DNA from: Candidatus Uhrbacteria bacterium CG_4_9_14_3_um_filter_41_35
GTDB taxonomy: Bacteria > Patescibacteriota > Patescibacteriia > UBA9934
Direction: 5' to 3'
DNA: 64,000 bases
NCBI GenBank assembly: GCA_002791275.1
Contig: PFWT01000006.1
Span: 8,831 to 72,830 of the forward strand
Shown one piece after another: positions 1,978 to 56,283 of the stretch (its first letter is position 1; each line of letters opens with the position of its first letter). The position numbers were made by a program, and so were the translations under genes. Under the pieces are notes generated by a model. The model saw nothing but the letters and a program-made list of their open reading frames with translations, was not told where the DNA came from and did no database searches.

Positions 1978-2586
1978 TTATTGTAAAAATTCCCCCGGAA
2001 TTATGGTTGAGCCCTGGCGAATAATTGTCACTTCTTCACCTAAAACTTTAATTGTAGTTGAGGCCGGTACTGCCGGTAGCTCACCGGCGTCAATTACAAG
2101 ATCTGGCTCCGTGTGGCCCTTAAAAATTTTCTGTACATCACGCACGGTGTAAATTGCATCCTGACCAGAAATGTTTGCGCTAGTTGCTACAATCGGCTTA
2201 CCTAAACGGCTAGCTAATGTGCTAGCAAAGGGGTGCGAACTCACCCGAATCGATTGCGTACCATACTGTGAGCAAGCAGACGAGATTTTTGAGCCATAAA
2301 CGATAGGTACAATTATATTCAATGAACCCGGCCAAAACATTTTTGCGAGTTGTTGCGCAGTTTCAGAAAGTTCTAAGTAGGTTTCTGCCTCCGATTCTAG
2401 ACCGATAATTACCGGAAGTCCCTTGCCACCCGGACGACCCTTAATTTCAAAGATCCGCCGAACAGCAGAATCGTTAGTGGCATCGCAACCCAAAGCGTAA
2501 GACGTTTCCGTTGGGTACACAATCACCTTCCCCGCTATTAAAGCCTCGAGCGCTTGTTCGATTTGAGCTGAAGTAATCTGCAACAT
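1978..2586 (-). CDS. tsaC: L-threonylcarbamoyladenylate synthase, YrdC/Sua5 (TsaC) family
   Basis: The VIVYPTETSYALGCDATNDSAVRRIFEIKGRP segment matches the YrdC family signature; 202 aa. Confidence 0.8.
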   Translation of the reverse strand: MLQITSAQIEQALEALIAGKVIVYPTETSYALGCDATNDSAVRRIFEIKGRPGGKGLPVIIGLESEAETYLELSETAQQLAKMFWPGSLNIIVPIVYGSKISSACSQYGTQSIRVSSHPFASTLASRLGKPIVATSANISGQDAIYTVRDVQKIFKGHTEPDLVIDAGELPAVPASTTIKVLGEEVTIIRQGSTIIPGEFLQ

Positions 2587-18697: not shown

Positions 18698-21600
18698 TTA
18701 TAGATTTTTAGCCGAAATATCGAAGAATCGTTCAAAGAAACTTGTTAGCTTATTTAAAACATTTTCTCGTTTTTTGCCATAACCGCCATCAGGAGAAAAA
18801 CGAGATGGGCGATTTATCATTATTTTACTAATTACAGTACCGGTTGTCGCTACATTTCCGTCTCTAAAAGCATTATTTATGAATTTGTAGGTAGCTTCTG
18901 GGTCAAGGTTTTCATTTTCAATTATTTTGTTGAGTTCTTCAATTTTCTTTTCTTCTACAAATTTTTGCCAATCTTCATCAATGATTGAATGAACATCAAG
19001 AGAAGTAATAAATTTATTGATAAGATCTTTTTTATTTCGGAGTTCAACACTAGAATCAATGGCTTTATTAATATCAACTAAAAGCTCTTTGTTTTTAGTA
19101 TGATCTTCATGATAGTGCTTAATAAGACCTAGAACATAATCAATATTAATTTCTACTTGTTTAATAAGCTCCATTTCAAAGACCACATCGTCATTAACAT
19201 TTTCTTTTTCTCCCTCTTCACCTTTACGAAATTCATTATATAAATCAATGTACATGCTATGGTAATCTTGCACATCACGCTCAGTCAAAATTTCATTTCC
19301 TGCAAATTCATCAAAAGTTGTAAGGATGTTTCGGACACGCAAAACCGCTCCGTATGATCTAATAAAATCTGTTTGAATCTGCTCTCCTACAATCCTTTCT
19401 CCTACCGGGAAATTTTCCAAAAGCTCATCAATCAAACTTTTGTATCCTCGGACTTCTTTATCGTCGTCTTTATAACCATTGTAATAGTCATTATAAGCTT
19501 TAAGAAGAACAATCCCACTGGCTTCCTTATCTCCAAAAAGTGCAATAGATTCGTTTGTCGCTTTTTCTAAATTGCGAAAACAAACAATATTTCCAAAGGT
19601 TTTTACACTATTCAAAATACGATTAGTTCTAGAAAATGCTTGAAGTAAACCATGCAAACGCAAGTTTTTATCTACCCAAATGGTATTCAGAGTTGTAGCA
19701 TCAAATCCAGTCAAAAACATGTTTACTACAATCAGAATATCAATTTCTCTATTTTTAACTCGCTCACTAACATCTTTGTAATAGTTTTGAAATTTATCTG
19801 ACGAAGTATCATAAGAAGTGCCAAACATTTTATTGTAATCACTAATGGCATTTTCAAGAAAATCTCGAGAACTAATATCAAGTCCGCTTGTATCTTCAGA
19901 ATTTTCATCAATCATTCCGTCCGCGTCTTCATCATTTACTCCAAAACTAAAAATTGTTGCTATTTTAAGTCGTTTATCGCTAGGTTCGTCGGCTAATTGT
20001 TTTTTAAATTCAAGATAATACTTTTTTGCCACATCAATAGAAGAAACGGCGAAAATTGAATTAAAGCCCGCTAGTCTGCGATCCTGTATTTTATAAAAAC
20101 TATTTCGTTTGGTTTTTTGGTCAAAGTGTTCCCGAATATATTTCACAATGTTTTCCAGTCGCTCCGGTGCTGAAAGAACAGCCTCGCGATCAATATCACG
20201 AACTTGAGCGTCTTCAATATTTTCCGCTTCATGAACGGTTGAAACATAATCAACTTTAAACGGTAAAACATTTTTGTCAGCAATAGCGTTAACAATTGTA
20301 TAGGTGTGAAGTTTCTCGCCAAAAGCCTGCTCGGTAGTTTTAAAATCAAGCCGACCACCAGATGAAGAATTTACAGCAAAAATAGGCGTGCCAGTAAAAC
20401 CAAATAAATGATATTTACTAAATGCTTTTACAATACTTGCATGCATATCGCCAAATTGCGAACGATGACATTCATCAAAAATTAAAACAATATGACCGTC
20501 AAAAATAGTATGATTTTTATTTTTACTTATAAATCTATCTAATTTTTGAATTGTGGTAACGATTATTCGAGAGTTTGAATCTTCTAACTGTTTTTTTAAT
20601 TTAGCTGTACTCGTATTACTGTTCGCCGCCCCTTTTTCAAATTTATCGTATTCTCGCATTGTTTGATAATCCAAGTCTTTACGATCAACTACAAACAATA
20701 CTTTGTCTATATACGGCAATTTACTAGCCAACTGAGCAGTCTTAAAACTTGTCAAAGTTTTTCCCGATCCGGTTGTATGCCAAACATAACCGCCAGCCTC
20801 AACTGTTCCGAGTTTTTTATAATTTGTACTAACCTCAACCCTGTTCAATATTCGTTCGGTCGCAACAATTTGATATGGCCTCATTACCAAAAGTTGCTTT
20901 TCGGTAGTAAATACGCAATATTTAGTTAGAATATTTAAAATCGTATGCTTAGCAAAAAATGTTTTGGCAAAATCCATTAAATCAGTAATCGGCCGATTGG
21001 TTGCGTCTGCCCACCAGCTCGTAAATTCAAAACTATTGCTCGATTTTTTTCCTTTTTTAATTTTACCCTCGCTTGATTCTTTTATGTGTTGAAATCTGGT
21101 TGTATTGCTGTAATATTTTGTATGAGTTCCGTTTGAGATGATAAATAACTGCACATATTCAAAAAGTCCGCTGGAAGCCCAAAAACTTTCTCGTTGATAA
21201 CGATTAATTTGATTAAATGCTTCGGAAATAGCAACTCCACGGCGTTTTAACTCAATATGAATAAGAGGTAGTCCATTCACAAGTACCGTCACATCATAAC
21301 GATTAGCCCGCTGTCCGTCTTCGGTCGTATATTGATTAATTACTTGCAGGCTATTATTATGGACATTTTTCTTATCTATCAAGTCTATATTTTTAAAAGT
21401 TCCGTCATCTCGGTCTAATATTTTCGTGCTGTCTTCTTGAATAGTAGTGGTTTTTTCTTCAATACTCTGATTTGGATTAGCGATAACACTCACAAAAAAC
21501 TTTTCCCATTCAGTATCTGAAAAAGTAAAATTATTTAATTTTTCCAGCTGCTGACGCAAGTTTAACACCAATTCATTTTCTGAAGTGATATTCAAATATT

Positions 21601-21754
21601 CATACGCTTGAGTTTCCAGTTGCTTAATAAAAGCACGCTCAAGCTCGGCCTCACTTTGGTAGTGAGCCACTCTTTTTTCATCAGACACATACTCGGAAAC
21701 AACCGTGCTTTGTGTGCTTTCAGCGACTAAATTGTATTTGTTCTTATTTGGCAT
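18698..21754 (-). CDS. hsdR: Type I restriction enzyme R subunit (HsdR), type IC (EcoR124I-like)
   Basis: 1018 aa with DEAD-box helicase motifs (GSGKTLTSFK; FVVDRKDLDYQT; DECHRSQFG) and the PD-(D/E)xK nuclease region (NRYDVTVLVNGLPLIHIELKRRG). Long colinear identity to EcoR124I HsdR as recalled from memory. 11-bp overlap with hsdS. Confidence 0.95.
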   Translation of the reverse strand: MPNKNKYNLVAESTQSTVVSEYVSDEKRVAHYQSEAELERAFIKQLETQAYEYLNITSENELVLNLRQQLEKLNNFTFSDTEWEKFFVSVIANPNQSIEEKTTTIQEDSTKILDRDDGTFKNIDLIDKKNVHNNSLQVINQYTTEDGQRANRYDVTVLVNGLPLIHIELKRRGVAISEAFNQINRYQRESFWASSGLFEYVQLFIISNGTHTKYYSNTTRFQHIKESSEGKIKKGKKSSNSFEFTSWWADATNRPITDLMDFAKTFFAKHTILNILTKYCVFTTEKQLLVMRPYQIVATERILNRVEVSTNYKKLGTVEAGGYVWHTTGSGKTLTSFKTAQLASKLPYIDKVLFVVDRKDLDYQTMREYDKFEKGAANSNTSTAKLKKQLEDSNSRIIVTTIQKLDRFISKNKNHTIFDGHIVLIFDECHRSQFGDMHASIVKAFSKYHLFGFTGTPIFAVNSSSGGRLDFKTTEQAFGEKLHTYTIVNAIADKNVLPFKVDYVSTVHEAENIEDAQVRDIDREAVLSAPERLENIVKYIREHFDQKTKRNSFYKIQDRRLAGFNSIFAVSSIDVAKKYYLEFKKQLADEPSDKRLKIATIFSFGVNDEDADGMIDENSEDTSGLDISSRDFLENAISDYNKMFGTSYDTSSDKFQNYYKDVSERVKNREIDILIVVNMFLTGFDATTLNTIWVDKNLRLHGLLQAFSRTNRILNSVKTFGNIVCFRNLEKATNESIALFGDKEASGIVLLKAYNDYYNGYKDDDKEVRGYKSLIDELLENFPVGERIVGEQIQTDFIRSYGAVLRVRNILTTFDEFAGNEILTERDVQDYHSMYIDLYNEFRKGEEGEKENVNDDVVFEMELIKQVEINIDYVLGLIKHYHEDHTKNKELLVDINKAIDSSVELRNKKDLINKFITSLDVHSIIDEDWQKFVEEKKIEELNKIIENENLDPEATYKFINNAFRDGNVATTGTVISKIMINRPSRFSPDGGYGKKRENVLNKLTSFFERFFDISAKNL

Positions 21755-22865
21755 ATTCTTTTTCTTTGAAAGTTAAAAGTTTCCCGCGGTAATATTCATA
21801 TTGCTGTCTGCGAGCTTTGAGTTCAGCGGGAAGACCGATTGAAATGTCATTTACAAGTGCATCAAATTTGTCGAGGATTGAAACTATTCTTTTTTGTTCG
21901 GTAAGTGGAGGTGTTGGGATTTTTATTTGATTTAAAATTGCCTGAGTTAAACTTGGACGTCCTGATCCTGTATCCAATTTCATTAAATCAACAGTTTTCA
22001 AATAGTGAAATAAAAACTTTGGAATAATTTTTTCTTCGTTTATTTCAGTATAATAAATAGTATCTACATTCCAAAACGGATCCTCTAAATAGTAAAGGTT
22101 TGTAATACTTCCTTTTCTTGGAATTAAAACAGTAGGCTTATCGTAGACCGATTTATTTACATAACCCATAACCCCTCCTGTGCCATAAACAGGAATTTTA
22201 CCATTTCCTAACTTCTTCCAGTCTTTTCCATTCTTAATCTTTGCAACACCTTGTAGTAAATCCCATTTTGAATTCGCATCAAAAGTCAACAACTCATTGC
22301 GATAATGCTCATACTGCTTTTTTCTTGCTTCCAGTTCTGCTTCCAGTTCTGCTTCCAGTTCTGCTTCCAGTTCTGTAAAACTATTAAGAATTTTAACAAT
22401 TTCTTCTTGGATGGCAAGAGGTGGGATGGGGATTAAAGTTTTTTTCAGAAAACTAAAGTGTCTTGTGTATTTACCTGTTTTTGAATAAAAATTATTTAAA
22501 GCATAGTAAAAATATTTTATATTTAATATATTTGAATTTGTTTTTAGAATTTTAATACCGTCCGCCCCTTGAGCAAAAGAAAAATCAATATATTTTAGTG
22601 CCTCAGTGTGGTCTCCGAAAATAACATATAAATCTTTAGCCATAACTGCAGCATTATCATCAGTATAGCCAACAATAAAATCTTGTCCTTGATCTATGAT
22701 AGGAAATTCACCTATTTCCTTGTAGTATTTTTTTGTAAGCTTTTTAGGAGGAGCACAGGTTGTTACGATTTTATTTATAAGCAAATTATCAATATCAAAA
22801 AACTCCACACCTGCTGGGCATAGTTCTGAGATTAGTTTTTCGATTTTTGGTTGGTTGGTTGTCAT
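21744..22865 (-). CDS. hsdS: Type I restriction-modification specificity subunit (HsdS), type IC-like with (ELEA)4 central repeat
   Basis: Two target-recognition halves, each ending in a conserved coiled-coil (ELEARKKQYEHYRNELLTF and ELKARRQQYEYYRGKLLTF). A central tandem 4-aa repeat TELEAELEAELEAELEA is encoded by a 12-bp DNA repeat. 373 aa. Confidence 0.85.
   Translation of the reverse strand: MTTNQPKIEKLISELCPAGVEFFDIDNLLINKIVTTCAPPKKLTKKYYKEIGEFPIIDQGQDFIVGYTDDNAAVMAKDLYVIFGDHTEALKYIDFSFAQGADGIKILKTNSNILNIKYFYYALNNFYSKTGKYTRHFSFLKKTLIPIPPLAIQEEIVKILNSFTELEAELEAELEAELEARKKQYEHYRNELLTFDANSKWDLLQGVAKIKNGKDWKKLGNGKIPVYGTGGVMGYVNKSVYDKPTVLIPRKGSITNLYYLEDPFWNVDTIYYTEINEEKIIPKFLFHYLKTVDLMKLDTGSGRPSLTQAILNQIKIPTPPLTEQKRIVSILDKFDALVNDISIGLPAELKARRQQYEYYRGKLLTFKEKEYAK
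22321..22385 (-). repeat. 12-bp tandem repeat (ttccagttctgc)x4 plus a degenerate fifth unit inside hsdS; encodes ELEA repeats in the central spacer-length-determining region
   Basis: Direct reading: cttgc TTCCAGTTCTGC x4 TTCCAGTTCTGT. Confidence 0.9.
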
Positions 22866-24328
22866 ACTAATAATGGAATTAAAGATTCAATGGAAGTTTT
22901 AAGTTCTTCATCTGTAAATTTTGTATTATTTGGATTTTCGGGGTGGTGAATTATATTTCTAATTTTAGTGGGTAAGGTAGTATTGTATTCAATAACGGTT
23001 TTGTCTGACTTTAAATGTTTATACTTTTTGTCTATTTTAATAGCTTCACCACTTTTATTAAAAAGATATTTATCAAAATCTTCTGATTTACAATATTTCT
23101 CGTCTTCTAAAATAGCTTTTGCTTGAATAAAACCATAAAGCTCGTTGTGAAATTCAACAGATAAAACGCCAAACGCATAATAATTAATTTCCCCCCAAGA
23201 AGGACTTGAGGATCCAAACAAATCGAATTCATTGCCAGCTTCAACTTTGTTCATTCCTGAATCTTTTGAGAATATATTCATTGAATGGGTTTCTTTTTTA
23301 TATTTTTTCAATAAATATGGTGAGTGAGTAATTATAAAAATTTGTGACTTGTCGGATATTTTTTCAAGGGCGTCAAGAAGTTTGTTTTGAGCTTGCGGAT
23401 GTAAAAAAGTTTCTGGCTCATCAATAAAAAATAGTATTGGTTTAGAAATTCCGTTTTCATCTGATGAAGAAATATCAGCATACACTTGAATAAGTGCTAA
23501 TGCTAAGGCTCGTTGCATTCCTGTACCTTTTTCAGAACTTTTTGTTTCAATGCCATTTTCAGATAGAGCAATATTCCCCGTTTTGAAAAAACTCTCAATT
23601 TCAGGTAATAAAAAACTAAATCTTACTTCTGTTTCTCCGTACTGTTCAGACAAAATACTTTGTATTTTTTGTTCAACTGGTTGTAGCGTTTTAGCTAAAC
23701 TATTTTCGCCCTCTCCAAAAGTTTCTTTATGAGAATTTTGAAAATTTCTCCAAGTATCAGAAGTAATAAAATCTTTTGTTATCGTATTTATAATTTTTCC
23801 GCTAATTTTTGTTTTTGAAAAATCAGAAATATCACCAGAATTTGTATCAGCCCAAACAAACTGTGCATCAAAAAGTGCCGTAATTGTATTATCTATTCCT
23901 GTAGGATTCTCAAATTGGTTTGCAGTTGGATTAAACACACGAACATTTTTAATATCAAGCTTCTTTTTCTTTCCGTCTTGTGTAATTTCTTTTTCTTCGC
24001 TAGAACGCATTATGCGTAAACTTTTTTCACCATTAGTATCAATGAGGGAAGATTTATATTTTTTTAAGGCATCTATTTCAACAATAGATTCAATATCCTC
24101 ACCTTTGAATTCAATTTCAATAGAAACAAAACTATCTGTTTCAATTTCTGTCTTAGTGATGACTTCACTTCTATCCTTTTTTGAGCGTATAAAGTCAATA
24201 GCTTCAAAAACTGATGATTTGCCACAATTATTGTCACCAACAAAAAAATTCACGCCTTTGTCAAAAAGAATTTCGTGATCACCTTTAAAGCCTTTAAAAT
24301 TATGGAGTTTTATTTTTGATATATACAT
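22862..24328 (-). CDS. ABC-type ATPase fused to a C-terminal HEPN-like (Rx4H) domain; PrrC/RloC-like putative anticodon nuclease / restriction-linked abortive-infection protein
   Basis: Walker A FVGDNNCGKSS, ABC-signature-like SEKGTGMQRA, Walker B PILFFIDEPETFLH and H-loop IITHSP. The ~145-aa C-terminal domain carries KIRNIIHHPENPN (R-x4-H). 4-bp overlap with the hsdS start. 488 aa. Confidence 0.55.
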   Translation of the reverse strand: MYISKIKLHNFKGFKGDHEILFDKGVNFFVGDNNCGKSSVFEAIDFIRSKKDRSEVITKTEIETDSFVSIEIEFKGEDIESIVEIDALKKYKSSLIDTNGEKSLRIMRSSEEKEITQDGKKKKLDIKNVRVFNPTANQFENPTGIDNTITALFDAQFVWADTNSGDISDFSKTKISGKIINTITKDFITSDTWRNFQNSHKETFGEGENSLAKTLQPVEQKIQSILSEQYGETEVRFSFLLPEIESFFKTGNIALSENGIETKSSEKGTGMQRALALALIQVYADISSSDENGISKPILFFIDEPETFLHPQAQNKLLDALEKISDKSQIFIITHSPYLLKKYKKETHSMNIFSKDSGMNKVEAGNEFDLFGSSSPSWGEINYYAFGVLSVEFHNELYGFIQAKAILEDEKYCKSEDFDKYLFNKSGEAIKIDKKYKHLKSDKTVIEYNTTLPTKIRNIIHHPENPNNTKFTDEELKTSIESLIPLLV

Positions 24329-24337
24329 AATTTTTAA

Positions 24338-24420
24338 TGATTTTTTTCAATATCCGCCATAATCTCATCAATCGCCGTCCTAAGCTCATTTTGCCCCACT
24401 GCAATTTTTAATTTCGCGTT
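24338..24420 (-). pseudogene. 3'-terminal remnant of an hsdM gene (encodes ...KIAVGQNELRTAIDEIMADIEKNH*); there is no start codon, and a stop lies a few codons upstream
   Basis: Nucleotide and peptide similarity to the 3' end of the intact hsdM at 25487.. (IVARQNELRNAIDEIVVDIEGTN*). It has the same spacing to the downstream gene start as hsdM has to dinD. Confidence 0.65.
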
Positions 24421-24628
24421 TGTTATATTATATTTCAGCCATTTTACAAGCTAACTGAATCTCTTCATCTTGGCTTTCTAACCACAGATCAACGTCTAAC
24501 TTATGTTCAGTTTTATTTTGGCTAATCATCTCCAATACAGGTTTTTTGTATTTAGATCAATAAATTTGGCACCATTATTGTCCTCAAAGAATTTTAATAC
24601 GTTTTCTACATTTATTGGATTTTTCATA

Positions 24629-25477
24629 TTATCCTTCATTATCCTTTAAAAATTTTTTATCATCATTCCCAAGATAGTTTTTCTCACTAATTACACTTCT
24701 ACCAAGCTCTTTTTCAGTTTCCTTCCTCGCGTTGCCTGCCACCTTACCACCTCTTTTGGCTACTCTTTTACTTTCAGTAATTCCTTTTGGTTTTTCTTGA
24801 CTCGATATTTCCGTGGTAACTTTTTCGCCAAGCATTGTAAAAATAAGCTCGAGATCCGTCATATTGTCTCTAAGATTTGCCTTAGATTTATCGGGAATAT
24901 TTTTGAGCTTCATATATTCGCTCGGCGTCATTCCAAAAGTCGCTTTGCTGATTTCTGCGGTCAAAATAGCATAGTCTCTTTGCTCTGTGATTCCTCTCTG
25001 TTTCCATTCATCCGTTAAATTTTGACGGATAGCAATTCCACGAAGTCTTTTGTCTATCCAATCTTGAGGATAGCCCTTTGCTTCATAGAGCTTTTTCATT
25101 CTTTCTTGGGCCAGTTCTGGATTTTCTATTTCCTCGATTCTTTCATAACCCACTTTGGCAAGCCACCTTTTGAAAGGTTCAGCTTTTGGAGAAGGGATGG
25201 ACTGGATAATTCTTAAAATCCCTTCAGTATTTGCACAATCTGTTTCTCTCATTTTTCCGTCTGGTGCAAGGAGTTTCAACCCGTGACAAAATGTCACGAC
25301 TTCACTTCCTTCTTCATTAAGTCTCTGTTTTAATTTTCTCCAATAAGCTCCCGCATCAGGACTTTCTGTAAGAGCAAAACATATATCAACGACCGAAAAA
25401 TACCATTCTTCATTATGCCAAATTTTACGAATTTGTTTTTTTTCAAACAGTGCGATTTTGTTGTGAGTATTTGCCAT
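24629..25477 (-). CDS. DinD-like / Bro-N domain protein (DNA-damage-inducible protein D family)
   Basis: N-terminal Bro-N-like segment (KIALFEKKQIRKIWHNEEWYFSVVDICFAL). The C-terminal region (KSKANLRDNMTDLELIFTMLGEKVTTEI; basic tail KRVAKRGGKVAGNARKE) resembles E. coli DinD as recalled from memory. 282 aa, 9 bp downstream of hsdM. Confidence 0.6.
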   Translation of the reverse strand: MANTHNKIALFEKKQIRKIWHNEEWYFSVVDICFALTESPDAGAYWRKLKQRLNEEGSEVVTFCHGLKLLAPDGKMRETDCANTEGILRIIQSIPSPKAEPFKRWLAKVGYERIEEIENPELAQERMKKLYEAKGYPQDWIDKRLRGIAIRQNLTDEWKQRGITEQRDYAILTAEISKATFGMTPSEYMKLKNIPDKSKANLRDNMTDLELIFTMLGEKVTTEISSQEKPKGITESKRVAKRGGKVAGNARKETEKELGRSVISEKNYLGNDDKKFLKDNEG

Positions 25478-25486
25478 ATTACTATT

Positions 25487-27064
25487 TTAGTTAGTTCCTT
25501 CAATATCCACCACAATCTCATCAATCGCATTTCGAAGCTCATTTTGCCTTGCGACAATTTGGGAAATTTTACTGTTAAGTTCTTTTATATCAATTATTTC
25601 GCGAGTATCTTCTGCTACTACATAACTTGATACTGCAATATTATAATCATTTTCGCTAATAGTTTTATTATCCACCAGTTTTGCAAAATACTCTGTGTCT
25701 TTACGCTCAATAAACGCATTAAGAATTTTTTTGCGATTTTCTTCACTTAATTTGTTTTTATTTCCACCTCGCACAAATTCTTTAGAAGCGTCTATAAACA
25801 AAGTCTTATTATCTTTTTTACTTTTTTTCAATATAACAACACAGGTTGCGATAGTTGTTCCGAAAAAGAGATCGGGCGGTAATTGTATAACTGAATCTAT
25901 GTAGTTATTATCAATCAAATATTTACGGATTTTTTGTTCAGCTCCACCACGATAAAGAACCCCCGGAAATTCAACAATTGCCGCGGTTCCGCTGGTTGAG
26001 AGCCAAGAAAGCATGTGCATGGTAAACGCTAGATCTGCCTTGCTTTTTGGTGCCAAAACTCCTGCGGGAGAAAAACGAGGATCATTTATTATTAAAGGAT
26101 TGGCATCGCCGTCCCACTTGATTGAATATGGCGGATTGGAAACAATGGCGTCAAAAGGTTCATCGTCCCAGTGTTTTGGATCAGTAAGAGTATCACCATG
26201 GGCAATATCAAAATTGTTATAATTGATATCATGCAAAAACATGTTTATACGGCAGAGGTTGTAGGTAGTGAGGTTTATTTCCTGTCCGTAGAAACCAAGA
26301 CGAACATTGTCTTTACCGAGCACTTTTGCAAATTTAAGAAGAAGTGAACCGGAACCGCAACAAGGATCATAAACTTTATTTACTTCTGTTTTACCAACGG
26401 TTGTAATTTCAGCCAAAAGTTCACTTACTTCTTGAGGGGTAAAAAATTCTCCTCCAGATTTACCAGCATTTGAAGCATACATGGTCATCAAAAATTCATA
26501 AGCATCACCGAAAGCGTCAATTGTGTTATCTCCATAATCACCCAAGCGAAGATCACCGATAGCTTCTAACAGTTTTACAAGTTTTTGATTTCTTTTCTCA
26601 ACTGTTCCGCCTAGCTTATTTGAGTTCACATCCAAGTCATCAAACAATCCTTTAAGATCGTCTTCGCTATCAAATCCTTTGGCAGAATTTTCGATATTAT
26701 CAAAAACCTTAGAAAGTGTTTCGTTAAGCTTTGCATCGCTACGGGCATTTTTATGAACATTTATAAAAAGTTCGCTCGGCAGAATATAAAAACCTTTATT
26801 AATTATTGTTTCTATTCTACCAAATTCCGCTTCTTTATCACTCAACTTAATATAATCAAATTGTTCTTGTCCGAAAACTCGCCTTTCATCTTCATTGATA
26901 AAGTTAGTTAGATTTTCGCTAATGAAACGATAAAAAAGCATTCCAAGAACATACTGTTTAAAATCCCAGCCGTCGACACTTCCTCGCAAGTCATTCGCAA
27001 TTTGCCAAATAGCACGATGTAACTCCGAGCGTTCTTGCTCTTTTGTTGTATTTAAATTTGTCAT
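25487..27064 (-). CDS. hsdM: Type I restriction-modification N6-adenine DNA methyltransferase (HsdM), type IC (EcoR124I-like)
   Basis: Motif I DPCCGSGSLLL and motif IV VSNPPYSIKW. N- and C-terminal regions colinear with EcoR124I HsdM (recalled). 525 aa. Confidence 0.95.
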   Translation of the reverse strand: MTNLNTTKEQERSELHRAIWQIANDLRGSVDGWDFKQYVLGMLFYRFISENLTNFINEDERRVFGQEQFDYIKLSDKEAEFGRIETIINKGFYILPSELFINVHKNARSDAKLNETLSKVFDNIENSAKGFDSEDDLKGLFDDLDVNSNKLGGTVEKRNQKLVKLLEAIGDLRLGDYGDNTIDAFGDAYEFLMTMYASNAGKSGGEFFTPQEVSELLAEITTVGKTEVNKVYDPCCGSGSLLLKFAKVLGKDNVRLGFYGQEINLTTYNLCRINMFLHDINYNNFDIAHGDTLTDPKHWDDEPFDAIVSNPPYSIKWDGDANPLIINDPRFSPAGVLAPKSKADLAFTMHMLSWLSTSGTAAIVEFPGVLYRGGAEQKIRKYLIDNNYIDSVIQLPPDLFFGTTIATCVVILKKSKKDNKTLFIDASKEFVRGGNKNKLSEENRKKILNAFIERKDTEYFAKLVDNKTISENDYNIAVSSYVVAEDTREIIDIKELNSKISQIVARQNELRNAIDEIVVDIEGTN

Positions 27065-27066
27065 AA

Positions 27067-27276
27067 TTATTTAATTAAATCATCTACACCAACACCAAAG
27101 GCATTAGCAATTTTGGTTAGCGTGTCGATAGTAGGATTCTTGTTTGCACCACTCTCAACAGTAACCACGGTATTTAAAGAAAGGTCCGCTAATTTTGAAA
27201 GGCGATCTTGCGAAATACTCTGTTCTACGCGCAATCGTTTAATGTTTTTTCCGATGTTATTTTTAAAATTTTGCAT
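27067..27276 (-). CDS. XRE-family helix-turn-helix transcriptional regulator (69 aa), 3 bp upstream of hsdM
   Basis: HTH_3 pattern IKRLRVEQSISQDRLSKLADLSLNTVVTVESG. Confidence 0.8.
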   Translation of the reverse strand: MQNFKNNIGKNIKRLRVEQSISQDRLSKLADLSLNTVVTVESGANKNPTIDTLTKIANAFGVGVDDLIK

Positions 27277-28436: not shown

Positions 28437-28513
28437 TGGTGGGCGCTGAGGGACTCGAACCCCCGACCCTCTCGGTGTAAACGAGATGCTCTAGCCAGCT
28501 GAGCTAAGCGCCC
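28437..28513 (-). tRNA. tRNA-Val (anticodon TAC), CCA encoded
   Basis: Manual cloverleaf: GGGCGCT-TA-GCTC..GAGC-A-TCTCG-TTTACAC-CGAGA-GGGTC-GGGGG-TTCGAGT-CCCTC-AGCGCCC-A-CCA. Confidence 0.9.
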
Positions 28514-28603: not shown

Positions 28604-28691
28604 GCGCGGGTGGTGGAATTGGTAGACACGCAGGCTTGAGGGGCCTGTGCCTGTAATGGGCGTGGAAGTTCGAGTCTTCTCTCGCGCACCA
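28604..28691 (+). tRNA. tRNA-Leu (anticodon GAG), long variable arm, CCA encoded
   Basis: Manual fold colinear with E. coli tRNA-Leu: GCGCGGG-TG-GTGG-AATTGGTAGACAC-G-CAGGC-TTGAGGG-GCCTG-variable arm-GGAAG-TTCGAGT-CTTCT-CTCGCGC-A-CCA. The ORF 28589..28792(-) overlapping it is spurious. Confidence 0.9.
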
Positions 28692-41927: not shown

Positions 41928-41940
41928 ATTAAACCTCTAC

Positions 41941-41969
41941 AAAAAATACTTCCGCAAGGGAAGTATTTC
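41941..41969. terminator. Bidirectional hairpin terminator between the hemerythrin gene and tRNA-Ile
   Basis: aaaAATACTTCCgcaaGGGAAGTATTtctt. Confidence 0.5.
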
Positions 41970-42046
41970 TTGGTGGACCCACTTGGACTTGAACCAAGGA
42001 CCGCCGAGATATAAGCTCGGTGCTCTAACCAGCTGAGCTATGGGTC
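41970..42046 (-). tRNA. tRNA-Ile with anticodon TAT (UAU; decodes AUA), CCA encoded
   Basis: Manual cloverleaf: GGACCCA-TA-GCTC-AGCTGGTTA-GAGC-A-CCGAG-CTTATAT-CTCGG-CGGTC-CTTGG-TTCAAGT-CCAAG-TGGGTCC-A-CCA. All stems are perfectly paired and the anticodon loop is C-U-U-A-U-A-U. Confidence 0.8.
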
Positions 42047-42144
42047 CGAATTTGTTTTCAGATTGAAAAAAAATTGTGTCTGAAACTGAAAAAAAAATAC
42101 CATTTAGACTTGATTTTGTCAAAGTAATGTGCCATACTCCTAGA

Positions 42145-43056
42145 ATGAAAAATCTTGCATACAAAATTGAAACTCCAGAGCGTCTTGACCAAGTGGTGGC
42201 CAAAGCTCTTCAGATTTCGCGAAGTAAAGTTCAAAAAGCCATAAAGGCCAAACAAATCCTAGTAAACGGTAAGGTTGAAACACCTCATTTTAAGCTTCAG
42301 GGAACCGAAATCCTCGCTTTTGACCCAACAAGTTTTGACGATAAAGTAATGAGTATCGACAAACCTCTGCCGTTAGACATCATCTACGAAAATGACGATG
42401 TTCTTGTTATAAACAAGCCGGCCAACCTTCTGGTTCACGAAACAGAATCTAGCACAGAGACAACTTTAGTTGATTCGATTTTAGCGTATAATAAAAAAAT
42501 AGCAAAAGTTGGCAACGATCCAAAGCGTGCCGGTATTGTGCACAGACTCGACAAAGACGCTTCTGGTGTAATGATCGTTGCTAAAAACAACAACGCTTTT
42601 GACCATCTTAAGAGGCAATTCATGGAACGAAAGACAACAAAACGCTACACAGTTATGGTTATGGGTCAGATGGAAAAGGATCACCAAACAATCATGATGC
42701 CAATCAGTCGCTCTAAAACTCATGGCCGAATGGCAGCTAAGCCAGCGAGCCAGGGTGGAAAAGAAGCGATTACACATTACGATGTTGTGGAGCGGTTCCG
42801 TCATCATTCCCTACTCGACGTTACTATTGAAACTGGGCGAACCCACCAGATTAGAGCCCATATGTTTGCACTTGCCCACCCGGTTGTTGGTGATAGACTG
42901 TACCGAATGAAGGGGATCAAACCTCGTCCGATCGGAAGAATCTTCCTACACGCTCGGGAACTCACAATTACTCTACCAAACGGTGAAGAAAAAATATTTA
43001 CTGCGCCCCTACCTGAGGATCTTCAGCTGGTACTTGCAGAGATTCCAAAATCATAA
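42145..43056 (+). CDS. rluD: RluA-family 23S rRNA pseudouridine synthase (RluD-like, N-terminal S4 domain)
   Basis: S4 region (ERLDQVVAKALQISRSKVQKAIKAKQILVNGK) and catalytic HRLDKDASG motif. The ORF track starts at GTG 42076; the ATG at 42145 matches the RluD N-terminal alignment better. Confidence 0.8.
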   Translation: MKNLAYKIETPERLDQVVAKALQISRSKVQKAIKAKQILVNGKVETPHFKLQGTEILAFDPTSFDDKVMSIDKPLPLDIIYENDDVLVINKPANLLVHETESSTETTLVDSILAYNKKIAKVGNDPKRAGIVHRLDKDASGVMIVAKNNNAFDHLKRQFMERKTTKRYTVMVMGQMEKDHQTIMMPISRSKTHGRMAAKPASQGGKEAITHYDVVERFRHHSLLDVTIETGRTHQIRAHMFALAHPVVGDRLYRMKGIKPRPIGRIFLHARELTITLPNGEEKIFTAPLPEDLQLVLAEIPKS

Positions 43057-55856: not shown

Positions 55857-56277
55857 GCTTAGAAAATTGGATGATCACTTGAGTATTTATATTCGAGAGG
55901 AAAGTCCGGACACTCCTTATATGGCAACGTATATTGAAAACGAGCGTCGCTAACGGCGACCGGAATATGTATTGGGAATCAAGGAATTGGAGAATCTTTA
56001 AGTCTAACTTAATCATCCCCTGCCTCCTGATTAAATCTAGGGAAAGTGCCACAGAGACAATACTAGCCAAGCCTAGCTTGGTGAAAGGTGAAAAGTTTGG
56101 TGAGGTCGTTTACGGCTACACCGATCGCCCTGCGGTGACGCAGTGGTGTGGTAAACCCGCTTAGGTGCAAGAACAAATTTGGTAGTTTGCTAGAGATATT
56201 TGGCAACAAATATCGCAGATAGATGATCATCGTCCGGCTCCGCCGGATACAAAATCCGGCTTATAGATTTTCTAAGT
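55857..56277 (+). ncRNA. rnpB: RNase P RNA (bacterial type, rnpB)
   Basis: Universally conserved GAGGAAAGTCCGGAC (P4 5' strand) near the 5' end, GGTGAAA-GGTGAAA region and ACAAAATCCGGCTTAT (P4 3' strand). The P1 helix is formed by gcttagaaaat (55857-55867) and attttctaag (56265-56274). ORFs 55834..56070(-) and 55934..56164(+) in the track are spurious. Confidence 0.8.
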
Positions 56278-56283
56278 GCTAAA

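Follow-up and report, generated by a model that had tools for sequence, protein, structure and literature searches.

How is AUA read as isoleucine, and AUG spared, in a bacterium whose tRNA gene spells out the anticodon UAU itself? The question is posed by one small gene in a stretch of 64,000 nucleotides, here called the window, ten of whose proteins match exactly those that NCBI and UniRef assign to Ca. Uhrbacteria CG_4_9_14_3_um_filter_41_35 (PJA46894-PJA46952), an ultra-small bacterium of groundwater, and are found also in two sibling Crystal Geyser MAGs (CG_4_10_14_0_2_um_filter_41_7 and CG11_big_fil_rev_8_21_14_0_20_41_9). The gene content of the window fits CPR/Patescibacteria. It includes four aminoacyl-tRNA synthetases (Arg, Tyr, Val and Trp) together with GroEL, NusA, YidC, UvrA, RNase J, L19, a T4SS-type pilin and several glycosyltransferases. 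Just upstream of window position 1, as seen on another assembly (L130, 11486-20770), there is a protein of 3094 residues with no recorded Pfam match, which comes after a TSP3-repeat protein. The answer that we favour, and hold to be probable, is that the tRNA is a functional, vertically inherited AUA-decoding tRNA-Ile of Ca. Uhrbacteria that has no need of lysidine from TilS.

The gene lies on the minus strand at 41971-42047, where its 77 nt, the encoded CCA included, read GGACCCATAGCTCAGCTGGTTAGAGCACCGAGCTTATATCTCGGCGGTCCTTGGTTCAAGTCCAAGTGGGTCCACCA. ARAGORN calls it at these window positions as tRNA-Ile with anticodon (tat), the anticodon occupying 42011-42013, and Rfam RF00005 matches 41974-42047 with 70.4 bits (E = 2.5e-13, against a gathering score of 29), spanning the full model with 0 non-canonical pairs flagged. 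All of its stems (acceptor 7 bp, D 4 bp, anticodon 5 bp, T 5 bp) are Watson-Crick paired throughout, the anticodon loop is C32-U33-U34-A35-U36-A37-U38 and the discriminator is A73. An isoleucine tRNA with anticodon UAU, perfect stems, A37 and the loop C-U-U-A-U-A-U was what the original prediction had put forward, and so it proves: the sequence reads that way, the two programs agree on the tRNA and its anticodon, the Ile identity is seconded both by ARAGORN and by the best E. coli match considered below, and ARAGORN, named there as a means of checking, confirms the position of the anticodon and an intact cloverleaf. The correction needed is to its placement at 41970-42046, which is one base low and lacked the strand. 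Since an identical tRNA and locus occur on six independent metagenome contigs, the gene is no product of faulty assembly. It is one of four that ARAGORN calls as tRNAs in the window, the others being Val-TAC, Leu-GAG and Val-GAC.

Signals for the expression of such a gene can be discerned on either side. A consensus scan picks out a sigma-70-type promoter-like site at 42094-42122 on the minus strand, with TTGACA, 17 nt and a TG-extended TATTTT making up 10 of 12 consensus matches, though its function is only putative; it stands 47 nt upstream of the 5' end of the tRNA, in a spacer shared with a divergent gene of the RluA family. Directly 3' of the tRNA, before a convergent hemerythrin gene, an A-tract/U-tract hairpin at 41940-41972 folds with -20.2 kcal/mol (z = -5.1 against shuffles), its stem of 14 pairs being followed by a run of U. 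To judge from this predicted fold the hairpin is probably a bidirectional terminator; a simple terminator scan of the window does not have it among its calls. With the promoter-like site on one side and the 3' hairpin on the other, the tRNA looks like a stand-alone transcription unit.

The divergent neighbour, at 42076-43056 on the plus strand, encodes a pseudouridine synthase of the RluA/RluD family with Pfam S4 and PseudoU_synth_2 domains. It scores 244.6 bits with the NCBIfam RluA subfamily and 211 bits with the RluD equivalog, below the cut-off of 351 for the latter. Some gene callers give the protein as 309 aa, and translation probably begins at a point downstream of 42076. A gene of this family is a conserved divergent neighbour of tRNA-Ile(UAU) in other Uhrbacteria-like genomes too, for instance in L008, L017, L083, L105 and L111. 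Further along the same strand, ribosomal protein L19 (43820-44254) is called with 144 residues and an acidic N-terminal extension, MTEEEKKAVEAPEMEAQSEEKEVE..., and its NCBI form has 131 residues.

From what sort of tRNA does it descend? Its best match in all complete E. coli genomes is ileX, at 77% identity over the full length. That single-copy tRNA-Ile gene, between mug and nfeF, has a CAU anticodon which TilS converts to LAU. A tRNA(CAU) of a Lachnospiraceae MAG has an anticodon stem identical to that of the window tRNA and much of the body in common, with an acceptor stem of the Firmicutes tRNA-Ile2 type. These two likenesses mark the window tRNA as one of tRNA-Ile2 type in which the wobble C has become U in the gene. 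As to charging, A38 and C29-G41 are identity elements for E. coli IleRS. The window tRNA has A73, C4-G69, U12-A23 and A37, and it lacks A38 and C29-G41, having U38 and a G-C pair at 29-41. On these features its body is of the tRNA-Ile2 kind, with an isoleucine identity and charging by IleRS predicted. A change of C to U in a tRNA-Ile2 has been proposed as the origin of TAT genes in general (Taniguchi 2013, PMC3575796).

A decoder of AUA would be of little account were the codon shunned, which it is not. In 40 window ORFs AUA makes up 190 of 16477 codons, that is 11.5 per 1000 and 14.8% of the isoleucine codons, which is high on the scale of Muraski et al.; it is rarer in the genes for GroEL, RNase J and ArgRS and at its highest in a low-GC restriction-modification island. 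Where seven conserved proteins are aligned with their relatives, the residues opposite AUA are I in 37%, V in 24%, L in 9% and M in 8%, a profile like that of AUU and AUC and unlike that of AUG (M 27%). AUA is thus an ordinary isoleucine codon here, so a decoder for it is needed; the codon count that the original prediction had suggested bears this out. The release factor encoded in the window is RF2 and the stop codons of the 40 ORFs are TAA in 27, TAG in 10 and TGA in 3, from which the genetic code looks standard. Codon reassignment was considered and set aside on the same grounds, RF2 being present, the stops ordinary and AUA aligned with isoleucine.

The island just mentioned is a block at 18698-27276 with GC of 0.33-0.35, compared with about 0.40-0.44 elsewhere in the window. 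It holds type I restriction-modification genes, HsdR, HsdS and HsdM, into which an AAA_15/AbiEii-like ATPase and a Bro-N domain protein are inserted, and it lies beside tRNA-Val(TAC) at 28437-28513 and tRNA-Leu(GAG) at 28604-28691. It looks like an acquired defence island.

How widely is such a tRNA to be found? GTDB species genomes were scanned for an anticodon-arm pattern with a pyrimidine at position 34 and positions 26, 38 and 44 left free, a pattern which demands an exact anticodon stem and so yields no frequency of UAU tRNAs. It occurs in at least 119 loci, with U34 in at least 108 and C34 in at least 11. Among the U34 matches listed, 107 of 108 are called tRNA-Ile(tat) by ARAGORN, the remaining one being cut by the edge of its locus. 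The records to which these belong are labelled Uhrbacteria, Nomurabacteria, Adlerbacteria, Kaiserbacteria, Taylorbacteria, Paceibacterota, Parcubacteria and 'Patescibacteria group', and they include Candidatus Limnocylindrus and Chloroflexota as well; nearly all of the U34 matches listed fall within Patescibacteria. The C34 matches listed are haloarchaeal, Poseidoniales and euryarchaeote records and the one Lachnospiraceae MAG, with no CPR-labelled record among them. The supposition that UAU tRNA-Ile is confined to a few lineages is therefore too narrow, as the tRNA is common in CPR. The window tRNA has no exact counterpart among the GTDB matches listed, the nearest of them agreeing at 69 of 77 positions.

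Twelve of the loci lie outside CPR, in MAGs of Limnocylindrus and further Chloroflexota. Their tRNA has the same anticodon arm and U38, with an acceptor stem GGGGGG(G/A).

Some labels are not to be taken at face value. Thirteen loci come from MAGs termed 'uncultured Gammaproteobacteria', one of them (OZ246400.1) a chromosome of 931 kb; they have a gene order of Uhrbacteria type, with proteins 40-80% identical to those of the window. The tRNAs of several 'Saccharibacteria' loci recur unchanged in MAGs that bear the label Paceibacterota or Nomurabacteria (for example L021 = L091, L028 = L035). Given that gene order in the one case and the identical tRNAs in the other, the binchicken labels 'uncultured Gammaproteobacteria' and 'uncultured Candidatus Saccharibacteria' were distrusted.

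The listed matches supplied 86 distinct tRNA-Ile(UAU) sequences (L007-L121), whose alignment has a cloverleaf consensus of 21 pairs with 0 broken cells. Compensatory changes are present at 11 of the pairs, all of them in the acceptor and T stems, the anticodon arm being uninformative for covariation as it was fixed by the search pattern. Unusual variability marks the first acceptor pair, with G1-C72 in 47 of the 86, G1-U72 in 21, C1-G72 in 14 and A1-U72 in 4, and CCA is encoded in 42 of 87 distinct sequences. Such variants seem to go with different types of tRNA body.

The surroundings of the gene are conserved as well. In at least 33 GTDB loci it adjoins an RluA-family gene, most of these loci keeping Cmk and L19, and some of them UvrA, ValRS or a CCA-enzyme-like gene, while the identity of the encoded proteins to those of the window falls to about 30-40%. 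tRNA-Val(GAC) is often within 2 kb in the listed loci, as it is in the window. So far as sequence comparison can tell, this is an old gene that has been inherited vertically, and neither a recent duplicate nor the passenger of a mobile element. A phage- or island-borne origin was rejected in view of the conserved synteny and the near absence of the tRNA from a viral collection. In that collection six contigs match the pattern, all of Limnocylindrus type (four of the six) or L058 type and none of the window type; the viral copies of Limnocylindrus type are perhaps prophage attachment sites or fragments of host DNA.

One feature of the loop goes with the identity of the wobble base. Wherever U34 occurs in the listed matches, in the window or in the six metagenome copies, the base at 38 is a pyrimidine (C in 88, U in 26), and all ten C34 tRNAs called by ARAGORN among the listed matches have A38, in a sample that is biased by the fixed anticodon stem of the search pattern. 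In other tRNAs the 32-38 pair is known to tune the strength of decoding. The covariation of 34 and 38 may have arisen through adaptation in charging, in decoding or in the two together, which we offer as a hypothesis.

Can TilS then be dispensed with? Neither TilS (PF01171) nor IleRS is encoded by any of the 40 window ORFs that reach 150 aa, though the remaining roughly 90% of the genome could hold them, and tilS, ileS and tRNA(CAU) were likewise not met within about 10 kb beyond each window end in other assemblies. A tblastn search with E. coli TilS draws a blank both in the window and across 1.03 Mb of related loci, and E. coli IleRS matches only ValRS in the window and related loci (1.0-1.16 Mb). 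A protein search with the N-domain of E. coli TilS listed 120 matches, all of them Enterobacterales-like. On a broader scale, Supplementary Data 1 of Meheust 2019 tabulates 921 families across 2321 CPR and 1198 non-CPR bacterial genomes. TilS (K04075, PF01171) is present there in 123 of the 2321 CPR and 866 of the 1198 non-CPR genomes and is marked 'depleted', these being counts of families in draft MAGs in which a divergent CPR TilS outside the 921 families would be missed. The corresponding figures for CPR and non-CPR genomes are 1985 and 1057 for GyrB and 1983 and 1046 for EF-Ts (Meheust 2019), and relative to universal families TilS is about 15-fold depleted in CPR. No paper's main text seems to have taken up this depletion. 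Of the other enzymes of tRNA modification in the same table, TsaD is found in 1942 CPR and 995 non-CPR genomes, TsaC/Sua5 in 1303 and 933, MnmA in 1495 and 948, and MnmG/GidA in a mere 5 CPR genomes as against 897 non-CPR.

With a conserved UAU tRNA, AUA in use as an isoleucine codon and TilS so depleted in CPR, AUA decoding that is independent of TilS, of the kind known from Mycoplasma mobile, is likely. The suggestion of such a route in the original prediction is plausible for this genome, and at the level of the lineage it is supported by the conserved tRNA and the scarcity of TilS.

It might be objected that the UAU tRNA is a supplementary isoacceptor, with tilS and tRNA-Ile2(CAU) also present and tRNAs with LAU and UAU reading AUA redundantly. 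Double systems do exist, in Lactobacillus casei, Cyanothece and Ferrimonas (Taniguchi 2013, PMC3575796), and TilS is, after all, present in those 123 CPR genomes and in a cultured Saccharibacterium, Southlakia epibionticum. The latter has a tilS of 885 bp beside FtsH that is essential in two of three calls, three 'tRNA-Met' genes, one of them lying some 1 kb away from tilS, just one annotated tRNA-Ile and no UAU tRNA; its IleRS has no zf-FPG_IleRS Pfam match. This is the classical lysidine arrangement, and CPR are not uniformly free of TilS. Redundancy is nevertheless unlikely for the Uhrbacterium. Besides the depletion of TilS, deep syntenic conservation and compensatory changes would not be expected of a dispensable duplicate, the listed C34 matches, from archaea and a lone Lachnospiraceae MAG, include no record labelled CPR, and the one TilS-positive CPR genome just described gets by with no second annotated tRNA-Ile. 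On the simplest view CPR lineages rely on either TilS or the UAU route, with this Uhrbacterium in the UAU group. TilS is accordingly rather probably absent from its genome, and we infer that tRNA-Ile2(CAU) is absent with it.

If AUA is decoded without TilS here, the course of events may be envisaged as follows. The tRNA would be transcribed alone from its own promoter, with transcription ended by the hairpin, and its 5' end would be processed by RNase P, whose RNA gene is in the window. (That RNA, of class A, at 55859-56279 on the plus strand, has 421 nt for a model of 367 nt, scores 166.6 bits and carries insertions of 71 nt in one helix and 19 nt in another.) A37 would most likely be modified to t6A by the TsaC/TsaD pathway, TsaC being in the window and TsaD near-universal in CPR. 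The TsaC/Sua5 gene (L-threonylcarbamoyladenylate synthase; 1978-2586, minus strand) is supported by Pfam Sua5_yciO_yrdC at 154.6 bits and by NCBIfam TIGR00057 at 155.8 bits, above its cut-off of 123.2. This is the first enzyme of t6A37 synthesis, and t6A37 is expected on ANN-reading tRNAs. U34, encoded in the gene, would have taken the place of the wobble C34 found in ordinary CAU genes, so that pairing with AUA could be direct and lysidine would not be needed; IleRS would charge the tRNA, tolerating U34, and the U34-A pair would read AUA. CPR being almost devoid of MnmG, U34 most likely lacks an xm5 group. Misreading of AUG would be limited by competition from tRNA-Met, by a ribosome like that of Mycoplasma mobile, or by the pyrimidine at 38.

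Might U34 rather be modified by an enzyme, and AUA specificity arise in that way, for example through its conversion to pseudouridine by the synthase next door or through another modification? Eukaryotic tRNA-Ile(UAU), which carries Psi34 and Psi36, provides a model in the form of tRNA-Ile(PsiAPsi), and the RluA-family gene is after all the divergent neighbour in at least 33 loci. That gene, however, has an S4 domain and its best score is RluD-like, suggestive of a housekeeping 23S rRNA enzyme although below the equivalog cut-off; its adjacency may be simple conservation of a gene order that also takes in Cmk, L19 and UvrA; and U34 of Mycoplasma mobile is unmodified. We regard enzymatic modification of U34 as quite improbable. 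That the gene is no working isoleucine tRNA at all, being a pseudogene, a tRNA carried by a phage or island, or the reader of an AUA with some other meaning, might be fancied from the restriction-modification island beside other tRNA genes and from the six viral-collection contigs with related UAU tRNAs, but is scarcely credible for a perfect cloverleaf of 70 bits with no broken pair among 86 homologues, in conserved housekeeping synteny 14 kb from that island, in a genome where AUA sites align with Ile, Val and Leu and RF2 and standard stops are present, and when the viral matches are just six and none of the window type.

Beyond this one locus, how far may the reading of AUA by an encoded UAU be extended? 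A wider proposal is that tRNA-Ile(UAU) is the normal decoder of AUA across large sections of CPR (Uhrbacteria/ABY1-like and Paceibacteria-like) and in Limnocylindrus of the Chloroflexota, complementing the TilS route of other CPR such as Saccharibacteria, and that the loop signature (U34/Y38 as against C34/A38) tunes an unmodified U34 to AUA and not AUG. We advance it tentatively, as a possibility that falls a little short of an even balance. Taken singly the window gene is of modest consequence. Were the wider proposal true, a substantial share of bacterial diversity would decode AUA without lysidine, at variance with the near-universal TilS of textbooks; by estimate CPR make up at least 15% of that diversity, and the usual view has TilS and lysidine as all but universal in bacteria and essential to them. 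The evolutionary account of AUA/AUG discrimination would need revision, and CPR ribosomes and IleRS would become natural test cases of wobble discrimination free of modification. There would be practical corollaries also: CPR genomes would be rated systematically too low by marker sets with TilS among their members, in assessments of genome quality and in phylogenomics (TIGR02432 belongs to the GTDB bacterial marker set), and those annotating CPR MAGs should expect Ile-TAT and not Ile2-CAT.

Genes of this sort are not new in themselves. tRNADB-CE had TAT genes from 19 species and a further 371 unassigned TAT tDNAs were noted in metagenomes (Taniguchi 2013, PMC3575796). A survey of 2018 put TilS in 98% of bacteria and called it evolutionarily stable, and a preprint of 2026 speaks of UAU tRNAs as 'rare cases'. 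A search of the literature outside subscription-only papers yielded nothing that links CPR/Patescibacteria to tRNA-Ile(UAU) or to the loss of TilS. The class being already known, the window gene adds a well-supported member to it; the lineage-wide pattern seems to be undescribed in the papers so covered, though it may be known elsewhere.

The closest parallel is with Mycoplasma mobile (Taniguchi 2013, PMC3575796), which has a tRNA-Ile2-type gene with a TAT anticodon and A37, there bearing t6A. Its genome is also reduced, AUA is a normal isoleucine codon, and tilS, strongly depleted in CPR, is missing. In that organism U34 was found to be unmodified, IleRS to have Arg865 in place of Trp and the rejection of AUG to depend on the ribosome, with competition from tRNA-Met helping to spare AUG. 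There the decoding traits were measured; for the CPR tRNA they are predicted. There, too, a single species is involved, while the CPR family spans many classes and has its pyrimidine 38 with U34. The combination of a TAT gene with no tilS is shared by M. mobile with Mycoplasma haemofelis, Mycoplasma suis, Bifidobacterium and Neorickettsia (Taniguchi 2013, PMC3575796). The last two, with tRNA-Ile(UAU) and an IleRS of eukaryotic type, resemble what is proposed for CPR in that entire lineages have swapped the lysidine route for a UAU tRNA.

With E. coli ileX the likeness is one of homology of the body, down to the shared A73, C4-G69, U12-A23 and A37, and the difference lies in a wobble base that is U and not C, in U rather than A at position 38 and in G-C rather than C-G at 29-41; as its wobble base is not C, the window tRNA offers TilS no substrate. 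A tRNA-Ile with anticodon UAU, encoded in the genome, reads AUA in eukaryotes and in some archaea (Nanoarchaeum, Korarchaeum), the eukaryotic anticodon being PsiAPsi; the likeness is in the decoding and the difference is that of another domain. UAU-anticodon tRNA-Ile reads AUA also in Lactobacillus casei, Cyanothece, Ferrimonas and a suppressor of a tilS deletion in B. subtilis (PMC3919564). Those cases are sporadic, recent or of laboratory origin, whereas the CPR gene is ancient, keeps its neighbours and extends over a group at the level of a class.
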